Of a stretch of DNA of 50,596 nt, positions 2,033-11,416 are shown in pieces; position 1 is the stretch's first letter, and each line of letters starts with the position of its first letter. The DNA lies in the IMG/VR virus record IMGVR_UViG_3300043499_000126, positions 1 through 50,596 of that record; one strand, written 5' to 3'. This DNA comes from a virus. Lineage: Duplodnaviria; Caudoviricetes. Under the pieces are notes generated by a model that saw nothing but the letters and a program-made list of their open reading frames with translations, made no database searches and was not told the origin of the DNA. The translations under genes and the position numbers were made by a program.

Positions 2033-2697
2033 TTCTGCCCCTCGGGACGATTGAGTAGCTTCTTGAGCAGCACCAGCGTGGCTGCTTCTGAGGGACCGCC
2101 TCCACCAGTCTGAGGAGGTGCTGTGGCGGTGCCCGGCTTGACCTCGACGTCGATGTCGCCCTTGCAGCGCAGCGAGGTCAAACTGTCCATGACGATCGGC
2201 AGATTGACTGGGCCATGTGCGTGGAGTGGCTGTGCCATCGCGGTTTTGAGCGACTCGATCTCCGTATGGAGAGGCTTTGTCGCCTCGTCGATCATCGCCT
2301 GGCATTCTTCCTTGGTCAGACCCTGAGCAGGAGGCTGAGTTCCACCACCAGATTCTCCGGGTGTGACGATGGGAGGTCCACCGAGATCACGCCATTCCCA
2401 CTCAAGCCGATGTGGGCTTCCTGCTGCCGCATCCTTCAGTGGTGAGAAGGGATGGGTGTAATAGCCCTTGTCGTCAGGAGTCGCCGTCGGGAGAAAGATC
2501 CTTCCTGCGATGCGACCGTCACTGCCGATCTGCTGCGTCATCGCATTGAATGGCATGTCCGCTGTTGGCTTGACATACTCCGCATACCCCGCTGGAATGC
2601 CACTCTCACCAAGGACAGTCTCGTAATCGTCGGCAGGCTGTCCCGGTGACTTCTTAATGGTGTCGAAAAACAACCGTGCGTATTCGTCGCTAGACAT
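2029..2697 (-). CDS. Hypothetical protein with Pro/Gly linkers and a short coiled coil
   Basis: 222-aa ORF overlapping both neighbours in the operon. Confidence 0.7.
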   Translation of the reverse strand: MSSDEYARLFFDTIKKSPGQPADDYETVLGESGIPAGYAEYVKPTADMPFNAMTQQIGSDGRIAGRIFLPTATPDDKGYYTHPFSPLKDAAAGSPHRLEWEWRDLGGPPIVTPGESGGGTQPPAQGLTKEECQAMIDEATKPLHTEIESLKTAMAQPLHAHGPVNLPIVMDSLTSLRCKGDIDVEVKPGTATAPPQTGGGGPSEAATLVLLKKLLNRPEGQK

Positions 2698-4033
2698 GAG
2701 CTTTACCCTTCAAAAGAATCGCTCTGAGATTTGCGACGGGATCACTTCTTGCCGTTATGACCTCGAAGTATGGATCGACAAACTTGGGAACGTCTTCGAA
2801 CCACCCGTCGTAGCTGTAGAGAACTAACATATCTGTATAGTTATGAATTACCTCCATAAGTGCCATCGCCTTGGACTCTGGCACTTCATACAGTCGTTGG
2901 ATTGCAATAAGCGTAAGATCGACTTCTTCCCACGCTCGGTGATCAAAAATGTCCAGTTCTAAATACTTGATGCCCTGTGCGCCACTGTCAATGACAGAAG
3001 GTTCGCAATCAATCCCGTAAAGAAACGTGCTAGGGTGCGCCCTTTGAACTGCTTTGAGAAGCTGCCCTGTGCCACAACCCAGGTCTAGAACCTTGCCCTT
3101 TATCTCAGGCAGGATAGAAACAATGAAGTCGTGTGCATTCTGCATGGACTCAAGTGAGTTAAATCCATTCCAATGTTTATTAAATTTAAGTGGTATAACA
3201 TTGGAGAATGGAAACTGATTGCCACTTGCGCCATATCTAGGATAGTCGTTACTATGTAGATTGAGTATAACTTTGTGTGCAAGTGCATCACTTGCGTAAG
3301 TTGTCTTTAGAACCGGAGTGACCACCATCGCAATGCCATGTAATGACGTCCACTGCATTGGCATGGACAATAAATCTCTCAACCAATTCATCTCCCTATT
3401 TAACTTATTCTTGTCCATTAATTCTAGAATCTCTTGCCCTCGTTTGACACTGGGTCTGCAGTCTACAGAACAAGGAAGGTGGAAAACTCCCCTGATCCCA
3501 ACGTGGCGGAGTAGCACGTTGTTGTAGACTGCATTCTTTTGATCCTTAGACTCAAAGGTTAGGGCTGTGTAGTCTCTCCACCCCGACTCCTTCCAATGCT
3601 TTTGAAAAGCCCTAACACAACAGTCAGGAAAGTCAAGCATGTGACCAATAGTGATATCGTCTTGAGCGCGCCACGCATCTAGAAACCTCTCTGGTTCTAA
3701 ACCAAAGTAAACTCGATAGGTGAATTGCTTACCAGATTCATATGGGATACTAGCATTCCCATAAGCTCCCTGGGCCGCACCATCAACACCTACGATAGCC
3801 ATTTGGACGTTATGTTTAAGTGCCCAGACCTGTAAGTCTGGTAGGTCTAAAGGATTAACACTTTGTAATATTCCAGGTCGCAACCCATCAATTAGTGTAA
3901 GTAACTCAACACCTTTCCATAGATTTGAGAGGGCATGTATCTTTCCTTGCCAGTACTCTCGTGCAGCTTCTGATGTCCAGACAACACGAAGGAAATCTGG
4001 AACTATAAAATCTAGTCTTTCGACTTTGCCCAC
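2690..4033 (-). CDS. Two-domain protein: N-terminal Cys/His-motif domain (DUF483-like) plus C-terminal class I SAM-dependent methyltransferase
   Basis: GHMLDFPDCC and FHLPCSVDC motifs; SAM-binding motif I KVLDLGCGTG followed by LYGID. Confidence 0.75.
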   Translation of the reverse strand: MGKVERLDFIVPDFLRVVWTSEAAREYWQGKIHALSNLWKGVELLTLIDGLRPGILQSVNPLDLPDLQVWALKHNVQMAIVGVDGAAQGAYGNASIPYESGKQFTYRVYFGLEPERFLDAWRAQDDITIGHMLDFPDCCVRAFQKHWKESGWRDYTALTFESKDQKNAVYNNVLLRHVGIRGVFHLPCSVDCRPSVKRGQEILELMDKNKLNREMNWLRDLLSMPMQWTSLHGIAMVVTPVLKTTYASDALAHKVILNLHSNDYPRYGASGNQFPFSNVIPLKFNKHWNGFNSLESMQNAHDFIVSILPEIKGKVLDLGCGTGQLLKAVQRAHPSTFLYGIDCEPSVIDSGAQGIKYLELDIFDHRAWEEVDLTLIAIQRLYEVPESKAMALMEVIHNYTDMLVLYSYDGWFEDVPKFVDPYFEVITARSDPVANLRAILLKGKAHV

Positions 4034-5187
4034 TGTGGACGCTCCGTTAGAACTGTAGCTGGAATACCATAATCGGTATGATCACCATGATGATCTCCAT
4101 GAGGAATATCACCATGCCCGCTGTTCACTGGGTGAACGGCTGAAAGGAGATTAGCAATCTTTGTCCGCTTAGCACATTCACTTAAGAGCTGAGGTTGATC
4201 CCTCTCTATTGTTTCAAAGAGCGAGTACCAGAGTCTGCAGTTGACTGTTCTGTTTCTCCAATCTCCATCAATAGCAGTTCCGGGGCAATGACCCTTACAG
4301 AAAGCGAAGTATCGGCAATCCTTGCAGCCCCCGACCTCTTGAGGAGTGTGATAAAGAGCAATGTATCTCTCAAGTCCTGATACGTCAGCCTTGACCCAGT
4401 TGACCCCGTCCTTATTAGTTCGACCACAATTAGACATCTGTCCACTGGGTGAAACTCCTTGCACTGCAGCAGTCGTCTGTGGATCGCAATGATTCCATAC
4501 ACACGTTACACTTGGCTCGTACTGTGTGAGAAGTTTCTTGATATCAGCAAACGGGAGAACGCTCAGTTTAGAAGTCTTTGACCATTCATAGAGTTCTAAG
4601 TAGGTTTCGATTTGTCGTTCTTCCGAGAGCGCAAGCCCATCTCGGCCGCAATCGATCTCCATCTCATGGAGATTAAGATGCCTAATCCCAAGAGAGCTAA
4701 GAGTATCAAACCACTTGCAAAGGCGAGGAAGGTCATTGTTACCCCGATGGATCGTACAGATGATCGAAGGGATGATCCCTAAGTTACAGAGCTTCTTGAT
4801 TGCAATCTCTGTTTGGAGTGTCAGCTCGTCTGAGCAGCGCACACTATTCATATCACCTGGACCATCTATCGAGATACCTACGCCTACTTTGTATTTAGCG
4901 AACAACTCAATATGTTCGTCGGTGATAAGTGACCCGTTGGTTTGGATTCCATTACTTCCAAATCTTTCAAGTCCCCAAGCCCACACCTCCTCGAGATGTT
5001 TGATAGGAGCAAGGAGCGGTTCTCCTCCAAAGACAGCAAAGTTTTGACCAAGTCTATCAAGTTGTTTCTGTGCTTTAGACCAATCTCTTGGGACATTGAT
5101 ATTACCTGCTTCCCTCATTGGGTCTTGATAGCAGTATCCACACTTGATGTTACACGCAATTCCGACAGGTAGATATTCTACGCTCAT
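4012..5187 (-). CDS. Radical SAM/SPASM-domain enzyme (peptide-maturase-like) with an HxD-repeat tail
   Basis: CNIKCGYC (CxxxCxxC), FGGEPLL, IQTNGSL, ISIDGP; SPASM-type cysteines CVWNHC...CGR...CKDCRYFAFCKGHC...C. Confidence 0.93.
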   Translation of the reverse strand: MSVEYLPVGIACNIKCGYCYQDPMREAGNINVPRDWSKAQKQLDRLGQNFAVFGGEPLLAPIKHLEEVWAWGLERFGSNGIQTNGSLITDEHIELFAKYKVGVGISIDGPGDMNSVRCSDELTLQTEIAIKKLCNLGIIPSIICTIHRGNNDLPRLCKWFDTLSSLGIRHLNLHEMEIDCGRDGLALSEERQIETYLELYEWSKTSKLSVLPFADIKKLLTQYEPSVTCVWNHCDPQTTAAVQGVSPSGQMSNCGRTNKDGVNWVKADVSGLERYIALYHTPQEVGGCKDCRYFAFCKGHCPGTAIDGDWRNRTVNCRLWYSLFETIERDQPQLLSECAKRTKIANLLSAVHPVNSGHGDIPHGDHHGDHTDYGIPATVLTERPQWAKSKD

Positions 5188-6005
5188 GGTCCGATCAATA
5201 CTGGATTATCAACATGAGGAAGATCCCCATGTACTGCATCATTATGGTCTACGTGTGGTTGATCACCATGAGGGACATCCCCATGCCCACCTTCTGGAAC
5301 GTCTGTATGTGGTGTATCTGAGTAATGGTCCTGATGTACTGTATCGTGATGCGGTGTATCATTATGGAAATCTTGATGATTAGCATCATCATGGGTATCA
5401 CAATGGAATTGATTACCGTCATAATGGTTATCGGTATGATCGCCATGACCTGTAGGTATAGAATTTGAGTAATAATAGCAATCATCATGAACCTTATTAA
5501 GAGCTGAACCACTATCCCCATGCGAATCACCATGACCTAGATCATCATGTGCGTCGATAAAGCTATCACCATGTGGTGAATCTGAATAGAGATCATTATG
5601 AATCACATCATTATGTGGTCCAGGAGGTGCATCTACGTGAACAGATTGATCTGTATGATCAACATGAGCCGCAACTCCACCTGTATCTGTATGAACTACA
5701 TCTTCATGTGCACGATATGACCACGAACCACCCGCTTGAACCCAGTGTAAAGTTGTAAATTCAGCCCAGAGTGATCCTTGCAAAGCCTGAGCATCACCAT
5801 GCATCAGAGGGCCAACGACTTTGTATTCCCTATCTGCCGTCTGATTGATGTAATGAAGATCAGGCCCCTCAACCCAGAGGGAACCTGCGATAGCTCCTAC
5901 AATGCCACCGACGAGAATACCATTCCAAGCCCGCTCATTTCCGTCTGAGCCGACGTAGCGGAGAGTATCTCCCTCAATCCAGAGTGAGCCTGCGAGCTTT
6001 GGCAT
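5184..6005 (-). CDS. His-X-Asp repeat protein (putative radical SAM substrate, probably tail-associated)
   Basis: About 29 HxD triplets; N-terminal ~99 aa with three GSLWxE repeats; TAATG and ATGA overlaps couple it to the tail gene upstream and the rSAM gene downstream. Confidence 0.85.
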   Translation of the reverse strand: MPKLAGSLWIEGDTLRYVGSDGNERAWNGILVGGIVGAIAGSLWVEGPDLHYINQTADREYKVVGPLMHGDAQALQGSLWAEFTTLHWVQAGGSWSYRAHEDVVHTDTGGVAAHVDHTDQSVHVDAPPGPHNDVIHNDLYSDSPHGDSFIDAHDDLGHGDSHGDSGSALNKVHDDCYYYSNSIPTGHGDHTDNHYDGNQFHCDTHDDANHQDFHNDTPHHDTVHQDHYSDTPHTDVPEGGHGDVPHGDQPHVDHNDAVHGDLPHVDNPVLIGP

Positions 6006-6607
6006 TACGGAACTGCCCAGTAATCAACACCAACTGGAATGATGAGACGATTCATGATGTGCAGGGTCATATCACCACGCATGACCATACCACCAATTGT
6101 CGCTGCTCGATTAGAAACATTGATACAAAAATCACCCTTACCCGTTCCAGCTTGGACAAAAAGACCGAAACTCTGATTCGCTGCGGGATTACCTGCGATA
6201 TGAACTCCATAAATTCCAGGCGTAGGATTAGCTGCAATATTGGTCATGTATGCAGTTCCGGTCTGGTTGAATGTCCCGTTTGAAGTTACGTTAAGAAGTG
6301 TCCCTCCTGTAATAGCAACAGCATTGGCATTCTGGACTGCCATTGTGCCAAGACCAAAGTTGATACGCGCGCCTGCTGCATTGGCAGATCCTGACCCACC
6401 GCCATCTACAGATAGGACTTGATCGACAAAGGCCGCACCGTCCCATTCCTGGAATTTCACAGGGGCGCGCACCAGCTTTATTGATCCAGTCGGAGGACCA
6501 GTAAGTGGGATCTTTTGCAGAGTAATTGCGTCAATATCCCGATTCTTTGCCTCGTCGACAAAGAGGACGTAATTACTGGTTATTGTCGGTTTTGACCAAT
6601 CCGCCAT
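6005..6607 (-). CDS. Tail fibre-like protein
   Basis: Fibre-type segment GGGSGSANAAGARINFGLGTMAVQNANAVAITGG; located in the tail module. Confidence 0.65.
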   Translation of the reverse strand: MADWSKPTITSNYVLFVDEAKNRDIDAITLQKIPLTGPPTGSIKLVRAPVKFQEWDGAAFVDQVLSVDGGGSGSANAAGARINFGLGTMAVQNANAVAITGGTLLNVTSNGTFNQTGTAYMTNIAANPTPGIYGVHIAGNPAANQSFGLFVQAGTGKGDFCINVSNRAATIGGMVMRGDMTLHIMNRLIIPVGVDYWAVP

Positions 6608-7114: not shown

Positions 7115-8088
7115 GCAATCGGAAAGGCTGATACTCCACCTACAGTGATAGTTCCAGCCGGAAAACTACCACCACCATCAATTCTTCGATATAGATTTAG
7201 CTTAAGTTGGAAAGGTGCGGTCTGAATCATTCCATATGCATCACCAGCTAGCATCGCACTAGCACTGTATCCAGTTGGAGTAAACCCTGCTGGCATGTCG
7301 ATATAGATGATACTGGGTGTTGAGCTAAGAGTAATCGTTATGTAAAAATTTACACAAAAGGTTTTCCCGATTAGAGCGTATCTACAAGAAAGAGTTTGAG
7401 CCAGAGTTGCAGTCCCTAAATTCGCAGATACCACCGGAGCGAAATCAATCCAGTCCCCTAATGCTGTTGTGCGACCTCGCTCAAGGATTGCTCCAGTATT
7501 AGTAAAGGATAAAAGACCAGCAAAGGCACCGCTATTAGCAGGCGCGCGAAAGAATGAGACTGAATCAGTAAAGCTCGATACTCGAAAAAGCCAAGCGGGA
7601 TAGGACGTGTTATGAGGAACCCAAACAGATCCATTCCACCATGCGTTATGAAGATGCTCGAATCCGAACTGAGTATTCTGGATATATGCCTGAGCGCCTC
7701 CATTCAGAGTTACTCCAGCACTTGCTCCCATCACTGTTAACCAACTACCAGTAAGAGTTACATTCCCGTTACGATTCAGTCTAACAGCAGATTGCTCAAC
7801 AGTCTCTGCATCATTTATTGAGCGTAGTGCTAAGAGACCACCGTTATTTATTATATCAAATCTTCTTTGGTCTACGGGTCTACTTGGATCAATTATGAGA
7901 AGCCTTGCAGAGCTAGAAGAACTTATGATTTGAGTCTGATTAAAAGTATTTGGGGCATTCGTATATGCAACATTGGGAATCGTTCCCTCAGTGATGACTG
8001 CTCCGCTAAGAGGTAGCGGCAGCCATGACACTCCGTTGTCAACAGACTTTTCAAAAATGTGGGAAGTCTGGTTGTATCGCTGCCACAT
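7111..8088 (-). CDS. Tail fibre/receptor-binding protein, ~325 aa
   Basis: Beta-rich and rich in Gly/Ser/Thr/aromatics; C-terminal fibre-tip-like domain (CRYALIGKTFCVNFYI...DMPAGFTP); start set at ATG 8088 by TAATG overlap. Confidence 0.65.
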   Translation of the reverse strand: MWQRYNQTSHIFEKSVDNGVSWLPLPLSGAVITEGTIPNVAYTNAPNTFNQTQIISSSSSARLLIIDPSRPVDQRRFDIINNGGLLALRSINDAETVEQSAVRLNRNGNVTLTGSWLTVMGASAGVTLNGGAQAYIQNTQFGFEHLHNAWWNGSVWVPHNTSYPAWLFRVSSFTDSVSFFRAPANSGAFAGLLSFTNTGAILERGRTTALGDWIDFAPVVSANLGTATLAQTLSCRYALIGKTFCVNFYITITLSSTPSIIYIDMPAGFTPTGYSASAMLAGDAYGMIQTAPFQLKLNLYRRIDGGGSFPAGTITVGGVSAFPIA

Positions 8089-9554
8089 TAGACGACACCC
8101 CGAGCCTTCCAAGAAACCAGATATGTAACACGATTGCCAGTGGAATCCAGAGCAAAGACCTTAAAACCGACAGGATTGGGTATATCCACGAAATCGTAAA
8201 TGATAGTAATCGGCTCGATAGAATCGCATGTTGCAGTGATTGAATTAACATCCTTGAACAACTTATTGAATTTTACAGGCGTTCCATTAGTATGGTCTAC
8301 AGGGAGACCATCAACATTATGAATACCACCTGCATAGGCAATAACTTCACCACCATCTACCTCTCGTTTGACGTCAAGAGTAGTGGTCAATACGGTACAC
8401 TCTGCTAGAGCTTTATCACTTGAGCCTGTGAACTCAAGCCTCATCTTCAAGTAACGGAAGATAGGAACGAATTGCGATGGACCAACTGGAAGTGCAGTAT
8501 AAACAACACCATCACTAGAGTAAGATAGCTTTACTAGAACAGTGACCTCTGGAACTATCTGAATCAGTTGATAAGTAACTGTAACGATTGTATTCTGAAT
8601 CTCTATTCCATAGTCGATAACTTCTTCATACCAACCCGTTGTGAGCGTAGGCTGGATGTAGATTGGATAGCCAGCATTGATCTGGTCCTGTGGTGTATTC
8701 CACGATCTATTTACAAAATGCTGCTGCCAAGTTATATTAGTATCAACACACGCAATGAGGCTTGGCGTATTGGAGCGCACAACATTAAATTTCGTGCCAT
8801 TCAATCCGCTAATCTTCGTATCTAGAAGTTGGTAATCTGGTGGGGTATTGACGGTTGTAGTAACCTCCCCTATCTCACTCACATTACCAGCTATGTCGAT
8901 TGCTTCTACTCCATAGGTGTAATCCCCTGCGACTGTTTCAAAGGTTGATACAAACGTAGCGCGAAGCGCACCGTAAAGATTGTCGTTCCGATATATACGA
9001 TAGCGGTCAATCGTGAAGCTAGTTGTAGGAACAGTCCAATTTAGAAGAACGTTGTTATCAATTACTGCAGCTGTCACAACTGGCTTACCGGGAGAGATAA
9101 TTGTAATAGTTAGGCTCGCAAAGTTTGGTGAGTAGTTACCGAACGTATCAATAGTCTTAATCAGAAAGAAGTATGATCCAGATGGAAGAGGATCAAGTAG
9201 TATAGAAAGGGATGGGGTGCGCGTCACGAATGACGCAGAATCCCAAATCAACTCACCTGATCTACGAATCTCGTATAGACGAGCCGAGGCATTCGGAGCT
9301 TCCCATGACAAGTGAATGCCATTGAGCTGAACCTGACCTACAAAGTTCAGAGGCTCAGGAGATAGCCCTGTTCCACCTCCACCAATGATAGGTCTTATTG
9401 CTTGCTCAAGTGGCGCAATGGTCTGATAGATTAGCTGTACGTCCTTGTTGACATCACGAAGGATCTCCTTAAGGATCAGGACAGATCTTTCGTCATTTCC
9501 AAGGGCATCTATCCTTGCATCACGCTGTGGCTTAATGGGATGTTGTATCGCCAT
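8088..9554 (-). CDS. Tail protein with fibronectin type III-like domains, ~488 aa
   Basis: Fn3-like patterns (IHLSWEAP...YEIRR, VLLNWTVP...YRIYR...YGVEAIDIAGNVS); start at ATG 9554 by TAATG overlap. Confidence 0.7.
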   Translation of the reverse strand: MAIQHPIKPQRDARIDALGNDERSVLILKEILRDVNKDVQLIYQTIAPLEQAIRPIIGGGGTGLSPEPLNFVGQVQLNGIHLSWEAPNASARLYEIRRSGELIWDSASFVTRTPSLSILLDPLPSGSYFFLIKTIDTFGNYSPNFASLTITIISPGKPVVTAAVIDNNVLLNWTVPTTSFTIDRYRIYRNDNLYGALRATFVSTFETVAGDYTYGVEAIDIAGNVSEIGEVTTTVNTPPDYQLLDTKISGLNGTKFNVVRSNTPSLIACVDTNITWQQHFVNRSWNTPQDQINAGYPIYIQPTLTTGWYEEVIDYGIEIQNTIVTVTYQLIQIVPEVTVLVKLSYSSDGVVYTALPVGPSQFVPIFRYLKMRLEFTGSSDKALAECTVLTTTLDVKREVDGGEVIAYAGGIHNVDGLPVDHTNGTPVKFNKLFKDVNSITATCDSIEPITIIYDFVDIPNPVGFKVFALDSTGNRVTYLVSWKARGVV

Positions 9555-11416
9555 TACTGAGGCCTTGTTAGCCAGAGTTGACGAACAAATACCCACATCT
9601 TAGTAATAGTCAGATACTCTCCATTGTTCTGTAATACACCTCGGATTGTAATCTTCTCGCTTTGCGCATTGAAAGTCCTCATTGGATATATACCTGGAGC
9701 TATAGTTAGAGGAATGCCAGGCAGGTTATAAACCTGTCCGCCATCCAGACTTGTCACTGTTAGCCTGAGATTTCCTGAACCATAGGCGCGCAGTCTTATA
9801 CCACCGTGGTGAAAGACCTCACCCTTGGAATCGACAGGTAATTCACCAGTTTCCCAACGTGTGACTATTGCAACGTCATAGTCATTATGCTGTGTGATGT
9901 CAAGCTTCCTGATATTACCACCCTGTGTTGCATACCTGAAGATAATGTCCTTTGATACGAGATCATTATCAAGACCCATTGATAATGGGTAATGTGGAAA
10001 TGTCCAGAGAGACCACCTGATGTTCTTGGAGTTCAAGCCCTGTGTATAATCACCAACCAGAATTGCATTGGTGAATGTCGAACCATCTAGTGGTAGAGAA
10101 ATGTAGACGATTTGGTTATCCGAGTCGATTGCAACCTGGATCTTCTGGAAGTAAATCTTGGTAACTCGCTGCCAGATGTCCTTGACTTTCCAGGTTATCT
10201 CCTCCTCGAAGTTACCTGTAAACATCATTAGACCTCGACGCGAGGCTACTAGGTATTTGTCTACTGTATTTGAGTTGCGCTCGAATATCTTTCCTACACC
10301 ATGACACTCAGTTCCAACTGAGCCATCTAGCAGAGGAACTTGCCAGAACAGAGGCTGGTCGTTAGTTCCTTGTGTTACGTAGCATCTGTTGGATTTGAGT
10401 ATATACAGCGAGGATCGGAACTCGACGCAGTTTCTGACGCCCCCTCCGACCGTTGGCTCAACTTGAGCGAATCCTTCAACAGCGTTAAAAGACTCGGGTT
10501 CTCCAGCCTTGGAGATACGAACTGTGGCTGGGTTAGCATCCTCTCCCCAGACAACCATGCTTCCCTGATACGCGGTAATCCCAACCCCGGCAGGGATAGT
10601 GGGTAGCTGCTCAAGGATATAGTCGGCCTGGTCGACGAGATCAGCGTCGAAGTAGGAGATAGATTTAGTCGTTGTAACGTTGTCTGCGATTCTCCCTTGT
10701 GGAACGAAGAACCATTCTGCATTCTGATAGTCCCCGTTGAAATCGTTTGTTGCAGGGTCTGCGATGTTCTTGGTAGTAAAAAGAATGCGAGCGATAGTGC
10801 CAGCCGGACCAATAGGAATATTAGAAACTTCGATTGTCTTGTCGCCTGTATTAGTGATGTTTGCGAAAGCACCGAACTGAGTGATGAAACTTGTAGCTGT
10901 CTCGAAACCTACAGCGATGGCATGGATTCCCATATCGACCTTGCCACCCGCACCTTCTACTAGAGTCACACCGGGTGTAGGAGTAATAGCGACACCTCCT
11001 GCTACCTTGGCCGCACCTGTGCCTGTATAGTAGTAGACGTTCTGACCTGGCATACCTGTTATCCCATTGTGTGGAGTAATGTATGCCCTGTCAAAAAAGG
11101 TCTCCATTGAAAAGTCTGTCATTCCGGGAATCTGTAGGATTGGGCCTTTAGCAAGGTCCGACGAGTCCCACAGATTCCCGTCACCAACTAGGATTAGAAG
11201 TCTTGATACCTGTCCTGTGATTTTGTAGACATGAAACCTGACTACCTCACCACAGGTTATATCTGTGACGGACCCCTCCCGAGTATAGAACCCAGACGGT
11301 TTGTACCGTAGATTCAGAGCGGTCTTAAAGTGATCGATAGGGATGGCTTCATCCGGGCCTCGATCAAAGAGACCGTTAAAATCTGGTATCGGGACGGGAA
11401 CGTGGTTCTCGATCAT
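9554..11416 (-). CDS. Tail nozzle / DNA-stabilisation protein (P22 gp10- or T7 gp12-like)
   Basis: 620-aa beta-rich protein shortly downstream of the adaptor gene; size and position typical of a podovirus nozzle. Confidence 0.6.
   Translation of the reverse strand: MIENHVPVPIPDFNGLFDRGPDEAIPIDHFKTALNLRYKPSGFYTREGSVTDITCGEVVRFHVYKITGQVSRLLILVGDGNLWDSSDLAKGPILQIPGMTDFSMETFFDRAYITPHNGITGMPGQNVYYYTGTGAAKVAGGVAITPTPGVTLVEGAGGKVDMGIHAIAVGFETATSFITQFGAFANITNTGDKTIEVSNIPIGPAGTIARILFTTKNIADPATNDFNGDYQNAEWFFVPQGRIADNVTTTKSISYFDADLVDQADYILEQLPTIPAGVGITAYQGSMVVWGEDANPATVRISKAGEPESFNAVEGFAQVEPTVGGGVRNCVEFRSSLYILKSNRCYVTQGTNDQPLFWQVPLLDGSVGTECHGVGKIFERNSNTVDKYLVASRRGLMMFTGNFEEEITWKVKDIWQRVTKIYFQKIQVAIDSDNQIVYISLPLDGSTFTNAILVGDYTQGLNSKNIRWSLWTFPHYPLSMGLDNDLVSKDIIFRYATQGGNIRKLDITQHNDYDVAIVTRWETGELPVDSKGEVFHHGGIRLRAYGSGNLRLTVTSLDGGQVYNLPGIPLTIAPGIYPMRTFNAQSEKITIRGVLQNNGEYLTITKMWVFVRQLWLTRPQ

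Follow-up and report, generated by a model that had tools for sequence, protein, structure and literature searches.

The radical SAM enzyme of this virus ends in a short run of His-x-Asp triplets that, judged by comparison with its homologues, appears to be a selected and optional module, predicted to be disordered, which shares the presumed target triplet but is tuned to HGD. The window, that is, the whole stretch of DNA analysed, is a complete virus record of 50,596 bases. The enzyme, a 391 aa radical SAM/SPASM protein maturase, is encoded on the minus strand (4012..5187). Its tail core, HGDIPHGDHHGDHTD (residues 358-372; 4072..4116, minus strand), contains four His-x-Asp triplets in 15 residues, namely, H358-G-D, H363-G-D, H367-G-D, and H370-T-D, and lies within ...NSGHGDIPHGDHHGDHTDYGIPATVLTERPQWAKSKD*, where the stop follows. 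Read on the minus strand in this ORF, the His358 codon starts at 4116 and the Asp372 codon ends at 4072. The whole enzyme contains only five HxD triplets, 14 His, and 24 Asp. When its sequence was shuffled 100,000 times, four HxD triplets in a 15-residue window were never reached and three were reached 18 times. The sequence-only reading had placed four HxD triplets on the C-terminus of the enzyme at 4072-4116; its coordinates proved exact by translation, and the observation was confirmed.

The enzyme, its tail, and the gene cassette

The sequence CNIKCGYC (5131..5154, minus strand) fits the CxxxCxxC pattern that binds the SAM-cleaving [4Fe-4S] cluster, and its cysteines (Cys12, Cys16, and Cys19) were at least 90% conserved across 47 aligned homologues. 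Together with the radical SAM fold and a PF04055 score of 49.6 bits (cut-off, 29.5), this motif at residues 12-19 places the protein in the radical SAM superfamily. Peptide-modifying radical SAM enzymes normally locate their substrates via a leader peptide and a recognition domain. Because the cluster motif is already reached at residue 12, there is no N-terminal recognition domain in this enzyme. In the C-terminal part, Cys229, 234, 254, 288, 291, 297, 301, and 317 were invariant in the 47 homologues. PF04055 was the only Pfam match at E 0.01 or better, so the assignment to the SPASM-domain maturases, which bind auxiliary [4Fe-4S] clusters in a C-terminal Cys-rich domain, was based on this Cys pattern and on a full-length structural match to anSME and ChlB. 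The AlphaFold2 model of the enzyme (mean pLDDT 82.7) matched anSME 4k39 (E 6e-14, TM 0.64) and the triceptide synthase ChlB 9gm3 (E 1.6e-13). The best NCBIfam matches were cyclophane-forming peptide maturases (AmcB, DynA, and YhhB), all far under their cut-offs. Membership of the named triceptide equivalogs was rejected on score against cut-off (AmcB 69.9/425, YhhB 56.5/445, XyeB 35/450, GrrM/OscB 40.1/310, and FxsB 30.6/370 bits), as was membership of HxsB (TIGR03978, 24 bits against 370). The enzyme appears to be related to the named triceptide synthase families, yet a member of none of them.

The two structural relatives help to place this enzyme. anSME offers the closest solved fold (4k39); it is of similar size, lacks a domain for binding a leader, and modifies a short motif within a full-length protein. 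The enzyme differs from anSME in scoring 62 bits against a TIGR03942 cut-off of 349, and anSME recognizes another target motif and has no substrate-like tail. With the triceptide synthases, which are defined by joining an aromatic carbon to a C-beta inside an aromatic-X-X motif, the enzyme shares a radical SAM domain with a SPASM-type Cys-rich domain, best family matches among cyclophane formers, and the fold match to ChlB. These synthases act on three-residue motifs that start with an aromatic residue, His included, such as HAA for HaaB, HNR for YhhB, and HTK for HtkB, according to the covered part of the source (PMC11499958). Because related enzymes thus make three-residue cyclophanes at His motifs, a His-to-Asp three-residue ring in each triplet is the most economical guess at the chemistry here. 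In contrast to the short peptides on which triceptide synthases act, entire proteins bearing 20-90 triplets, virion fibre proteins among them, are the presumed targets here, and the same part of that source describes none of the synthases as carrying its own target motif C-terminally (PMC11499958).

The tail lies after the Cys-rich SPASM-type region and two helices, the last of which ends at residue 349. In the AlphaFold2 model, residues 352-371 and 373-376 had pLDDT values below 50, indicating that the tail is predicted to be disordered, and at these values it was docked with confidence nowhere on the model. The post-tail segment YGIPATVLTERPQWAKSKD (residues 373-391; 4015..4071, minus strand) is a second conserved element of the phage clade. 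Its residues 381-390 had a moderate mean pLDDT of about 71, with a short helix at 385-388, and 64 of the 110 tail-bearing near homologues found among the best 120 of 3057 had the motif G[IV]x[AVGP][TVIS][WFILV] after their final triplet.

The enzyme gene is one of three mutually overlapping minus-strand genes that lie amid tail and tail-fibre genes. The array gene (5184..6005, minus strand), whose stop overlaps the start of the radical SAM gene (ATGA), encodes a fibre-like protein of 273 aa, the probable substrate, in which three N-terminal GSLWxEG...L.Y repeats are followed by 29 His-x-Asp/Asn triplets; no family match was obtained for it in Pfam, NCBIfam, or PHROG. The same array gene was also located directly upstream of the enzyme in the viral loci L001-L008, with 27-54 triplets, and it holds this position in the Thermus phages Cumys and phiMa too. 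The neighbouring array protein is most likely the substrate of the enzyme. The third gene (2690..4033, minus strand) overlaps the last 22 nt of the radical SAM gene and encodes a 447 aa partner enzyme with a DUF483 domain (Pfam E 9e-8) and a class I SAM methyltransferase domain, the latter matching Pfam methyltransferase families. In an alignment of 42 partners, Cys138, Cys139, His185, Cys188, and Cys192 of the DUF483 part were invariant, and this Cys-Cys...His...Cys...Cys arrangement may form a metal or cluster site. The AlphaFold2 model of the partner had a mean pLDDT of 91.8, with a high-confidence fold in the DUF483 half; one Foldseek search against the PDB returned methyltransferases only, covering the C-terminal half, and no structural relative for the DUF483 half. 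Upstream of the array gene, a 200 aa tail-fibre-like protein (6005..6607, minus strand) matched the PHROG tail fibre families phrog_10316 (E 1.8e-5) and phrog_25747 (E 4e-4), which would set the cassette in a virion tail context. A gene further upstream (8088..9596) matched PHROG tail host-specificity families.

Conservation and history of the tail

At E 0.001 or better, a word-index protein search found 3057 homologues, the best 120 of which were used to count conservation. At least two HxD triplets were present in the last 70 residues of 110 of the 120, and at least three in 107; PHGD was found in 100 and HGDHxD in 56. The ten homologues without a tail were P0076, P0086, P0103, P0109, P0112, P0115, and P0117-P0120. 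In the closest ten homologues, the H, G, D, and P positions of the tail were fixed, whereas the intervening positions were variable, and the fixed positions were retained down to approximately 45% enzyme identity. These patterns suggest that the tail is under purifying selection. The sequence-only reading had staked its proposal in part on conservation in homologues, and in this respect it was borne out: the tail is not absent from close relatives.

The history of the tail was followed in a wider sample of loci, comprising 8 viral loci, the best 80 of 188 genome loci, and the best 80 of 445 metagenome loci. The 154 enzyme ORFs gave 139 unique sequences; 24 of these ran into contig ends or had a marker missing and were set aside, which left 115 complete enzymes with the two sequence markers. 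Under a strict definition (two HxD triplets at most 6 residues apart, after the enzyme core), 51 of these enzymes had a tail and 64 had none. A FastTree phylogeny was calculated from the 115 enzyme cores with the tail columns excluded, and branch support consisted of FastTree local values, without bootstrap or AU test. All 25 enzymes of the phage clade carried a tail. An actinobacterial clade, from contigs of up to 859 kb, carried it in 14 of 15 enzymes, the exception being L146, a fusion with the DUF483-methyltransferase. Elsewhere on the tree, the tail was scattered. A minimum of 9-10 gains or losses was needed to account for this distribution, and well-supported branches forced at least three of them. 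On dispensability, which had been held to count against the proposal, the outcome was divided: close homologues keep the tail, whereas many distant relatives encoded beside His-x-Asp-rich proteins manage without it (32 of 57). The latter figure implies that the tail is evolutionarily dispensable for the core chemistry. It appears to be neither a quirk nor a relic, and is best described from its distribution as a widely conserved, optional add-on.

A further protein search identified three cultured phages, the Thermus phages Cumys, phiMa, and phiLo, and the enzymes of all three have the tail. A DNA search of a phage collection with the three cassette genes yielded only one weak match, to phiLo. 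In Cumys (Cumys_13/12/11) and phiMa (phiMa_29/28/27), the cassette consists of an array protein, a tail-bearing radical SAM enzyme, and a DUF483 protein, with 54 and 53 triplets in the array proteins Cumys_13 and phiMa_29, respectively. These genes have been described as a three-gene 'rSAM module', in which two of the three proteins were called unknown and a role in DNA modification was suggested; the covered part of that account mentions neither His-x-Asp arrays nor the enzyme tail (bioRxiv 10.1101/2024.08.14.607894). In phiLo (L173, 149648-155673 of the record), a 483 aa enzyme with a His-x-Asp tail has no array protein within 2.5 kb, and a short way upstream of the enzyme gene are two transposase genes of the IS605 OrfB type. 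Its array gene may be located elsewhere or may have been displaced. In the literature covered, which comprised main texts rather than supplements and few of the subscription journals, we found no account of His-x-Asp arrays beside a radical SAM enzyme or of a substrate-like tail.

Longer homologues (P0121-P0230; 110 proteins of 686-2000 aa at E 1e-40 or better) were inspected separately. Ninety-six of them were fused to a DUF483-like domain, and none of the 96 had clustered HxD triplets anywhere after the core. The three long proteins that do bear a tail owe their length to inteins (PF14528). The fusions in this set included DUF483 alone (approximately 700 aa), DUF483 with a methyltransferase (approximately 900 aa), PF04016, and 2OG-Fe(II) oxygenases (PF13640 and PF13661), and two of the longer homologues were named aKG-HExxH-type peptide beta-hydroxylase by their source. 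In a tree of 323 enzymes, from which 22 of 345 had been left out because of an odd core length or missing markers, 146 were unfused with a tail, 77 were unfused without one, 100 were fused without one, and none was fused with one. When kinship was allowed for, nine independent contrasts were left, in which the tail differed in one to three, and the sign test was not significant (median p 0.5). The mutual exclusion of tail and DUF483 fusion is therefore a hint only. Clustered HxD triplets were found in none of the 42 stand-alone DUF483 partners, and the tail appears to be specific to the radical SAM enzyme rather than to its partner.

The tail and the neighbouring His-x-Asp arrays

The association between the tail and its neighbours was counted only at loci flanked on each side by at least 3 kb. 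At these loci, a His-x-Asp-rich protein adjoined 25 tail-bearing enzymes and was missing beside 2; the corresponding numbers for tail-less enzymes were 32 and 15. With 25 of 27 tail-bearing enzymes next to such a protein, the earlier suggestion that the tail links the enzyme to this kind of neighbour was upheld.

The further suggestion that the tail closely matches the repeats of its neighbour was confirmed in part. The array protein of the window does contain GHGDVPHGD (aa 240-248) and HGDHTD (aa 187-192), and the match is good for those neighbour triplets that are HGD. In composition, however, the two went separate ways. Over 40 pairs of tail and array, covariation was absent: Spearman rho was 0.005 when Gly fractions were compared and 0.009 when the comparison was of Pro before His. 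His residues lay within HxD in 169 of 198 cases in the last 45 residues of the 40 tail-bearing enzymes and in 1278 of 1394 cases in their neighbours. The middle residue was Gly in 75% of 183 tail triplets, compared with 16% of 1280 neighbour triplets, and the tail was Gly-richer than its own neighbour in 39 of the 40 pairs. Asp occupied the third position in 98% of the 183 tail triplets, and Pro preceded His in 31% of tail triplets. At the DNA level, the best matches between tail and neighbour were 19 nt at 94.7% and 29 nt at 86%. Short likeness of this kind is to be expected because His and Asp have two codons each and identical triplets recur. Gene conversion between tail and neighbour was rejected, since the DNA matches were short only and gave no sign of a recent event. 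The tail does not appear to be a plain copy of the neighbour's repeats. Its own composition, together with the retention of its H, G, D, and P positions to approximately 45% identity, left the earlier idea of a relic of a precursor-enzyme fusion unsupported.

The unit HGDHxD recurred in unrelated lineages, even beside neighbours poor in HGD (L008, L025, L140, L155, and L157). Tails usually contained 2-7 triplets, and the series extended to 19 in L008 and 31 in L033. The viral locus L008 (5001-8129) encodes tandem radical SAM paralogues of 574 and 465 aa, whose tails have 19 and 9 His-x-Asp/Asn triplets, with HGDHxD units spaced by 8-12 residues. These paralogues lie behind a 389 aa array protein, the triplets of which are mostly HTD and HSD. 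At L033 (6001-7839, labelled as a planctomycete), a 612 aa enzyme has a tail of approximately 200 residues, in which 31 triplets are mixed with Arg, Lys, and Glu. Its neighbour is a separate 140 aa protein with 22 triplets, fewer than in the enzyme itself, so that L033 looks, by its sequence, like enzyme and substrate on one chain.

Several bacterial array proteins (L010, L018, L011, L013, L036, and L044) had N-termini that by eye resembled twin-arginine signals (e.g., ...FTRRALIRAGW...), some with a lipobox Cys. These features suggest that the bacterial array proteins may be exported after maturation in the cytoplasm. Because the neighbours of the bacterial enzymes carry such signal-like N-termini, the system of His-x-Asp arrays and enzymes does not appear to be only viral. 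As far as the covered part of the source goes, the nearest characterised repeat-protein case is the HXS antiphage system, in which the His-x-Ser repeats of HxsA are matured by the radical SAM enzymes HxsB and HxsC and which acts outside the cytoplasm (PMC13128918). Both systems combine repeated triplets of His, any residue, and a small residue with dedicated radical SAM enzymes, and the signal-like N-termini seen by eye in the bacterial His-x-Asp proteins add to the likeness. They differ in that HXS, as described there, has five His-x-Ser repeats and an HxsD partner, whereas dozens of His-x-Asp triplets and a DUF483 and methyltransferase partner are found here.

Possible roles of the tail

We propose, with a probability of roughly 40%, that the tail serves as a flexible arm which mimics the substrate, enters the enzyme's own peptide cleft from time to time, and is perhaps stapled there. 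Where the last SPASM helix ends, approximately ten flexible residues would act as its leash and allow the arm to fold back into the cleft while the substrate is absent. There it could be stapled, probably once per triplet, because the tail keeps both His and Asp. An occupied cleft would limit wasteful cleavage of SAM, and a substrate-like arm could keep the enzyme near a substrate that lacks a leader and offers dozens of sites. A disordered tail C-terminal to the SPASM region, as in the model, should at first sight be free to move; that it enters the active site or is modified we infer from these features. We favour a place in the substrate path because of the identity of the motif, the tie to array neighbours, the lack of a recognition domain, and the series of lengths up to substrate-like tails. 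The nearest solved folds also support the mimic arm, being those of the triceptide synthase ChlB and of anSME, whose targets are whole, leader-less proteins. Further support comes from the conservation of the tail and from its restriction to the radical SAM enzyme, clustered HxD being absent from all 42 DUF483 partners. Self-modification and an autoinhibitory pseudo-substrate had both been raised by the sequence-only reading. In protein kinases, a pseudo-substrate autoinhibitory segment is a substrate-like sequence in which the reactive residue has been replaced. Here, the presumed reactive His and Asp are both kept, with Asp in 98% of tail triplets, making a classical dead pseudo-substrate unlikely. 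More doubtful than the mimic arm as such is the idea that the enzyme staples its own tail into a chain of His-Asp rings, a self-made metal-holding or substrate-gripping arm with which it would run along the fibre protein and cross-link its dozens of sites.

Four observations argue against the mimic arm. AlphaFold2 placed the tail nowhere with confidence. A simple extra copy of the substrate would be expected to drift with the neighbour, yet the tail does not follow it and differs from it in Gly content. The enzyme family does not need the tail, as 32 of 57 well-flanked, array-associated enzymes have none. The HGDHxD unit, with its two His and two Asp and its 8-12-residue spacers in L008, could as readily be taken for a metal site as for a substrate. 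The last point leads to an explanation that we hold only tentatively, but which does nearly as well as the mimic arm and accounts better for the Gly bias and the HGDHxD unit: PHGD and HGDHxD units may chelate a divalent metal, so that the tail buffers metal or hands it to the array, or tethers the enzyme through shared ions. His-rich C-terminal tails of SlyD, HypB, and UreE bind Ni or Zn, and Pro-His-Gly units of the prion octarepeat bind Cu. The tail is almost purely His, Asp, and Gly with Pro often before His (31% of triplets). The recurrence of HGDHxD in separate lineages beside HGD-poor neighbours, the preference for Gly, and the lack of covariation with the neighbour suit a motif with a chemistry of its own, and, unlike the arrays, the long tail of L033 has Arg, Lys, and Glu scattered through it. 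However, a general metal store would not be expected solely on enzymes with His-x-Asp array neighbours, and more than half of the well-flanked, array-associated enzymes have no tail. A role in docking was judged unlikely. In that case, the tail or the post-tail segment would recruit the DUF483-methyltransferase and would become redundant once the two are covalently fused, in agreement with the lack of clustered HxD in all 96 DUF483-fused enzymes, with the 100 fused enzymes without a tail against none with one, and with L146, which is fused and has lost its tail inside an otherwise all-tail actinobacterial clade. After correction for kinship, only one to three of the nine contrasts were informative, and 77 of 223 unfused enzymes manage without a tail. 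A complex prediction for the DUF483-methyltransferase and enzyme residues 330-391 scored 0.00 against a mark of 0.32; run without controls, this score is neutral on binding.

The borosin methyltransferases raise a further comparison. OphMA methylates itself. Enzymes of this type carry the target motif on their own C-terminus, with fused and split forms in one family, in the sources as far as covered. The tail could by analogy be a fused core peptide, first modified and later released by cleavage as a small product. The position of the target motif at the enzyme's C-terminus, the series of up to 31 triplets in L033, and the existence of both fused and split architectures in borosins, as given in the covered parts of the reports (PMC8429565; bioRxiv 10.1101/2021.12.24.474128), would fit such a role. 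We regard it as improbable: no protease or exporter was present among the cassette genes whose families were searched, a separate and far larger array protein is nearly always present, and the phage context is that of virion tail genes. Borosins also belong to another enzyme class with another chemistry, and a large separate substrate is kept beside the tail here. Still a little less probable is a neutral origin, in which adjacent array repeats were copied onto the end of the enzyme by illegitimate recombination and simply persisted. CAT-NNN-GAT repeats do adjoin the enzyme gene, and several gains and losses are implied by the tree (a minimum of 9-10, at least three on well-supported branches). 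Against this, every one of the 25 phage-clade enzymes and 110 of the 120 nearest homologues retain the H, G, D, and P residues, the tail differs in composition from its neighbour in 39 of the 40 pairs, and tail and neighbour share no long stretch of DNA.

As a sequence marker the tail is handy, because an array protein accompanied it at 25 of the 27 well-flanked loci. The presumed modification of phage fibre proteins by enzymes has, in the literature as far as covered, appeared in print solely as the unexplained 'rSAM module'. The tail is carried by three cultured phages of Thermus thermophilus HB8, so the proposed substrate-mimic arm is directly testable. If the mimic arm is real and becomes stapled, a virus would have provided the first radical SAM protein maturase that modifies itself. 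This enzyme family has neither a leader peptide nor a recognition domain, yet it is associated with proteins that contain dozens of target triplets; a copy of the target on a flexible leash would, if the proposal holds, represent a different solution to substrate handling or self-control.
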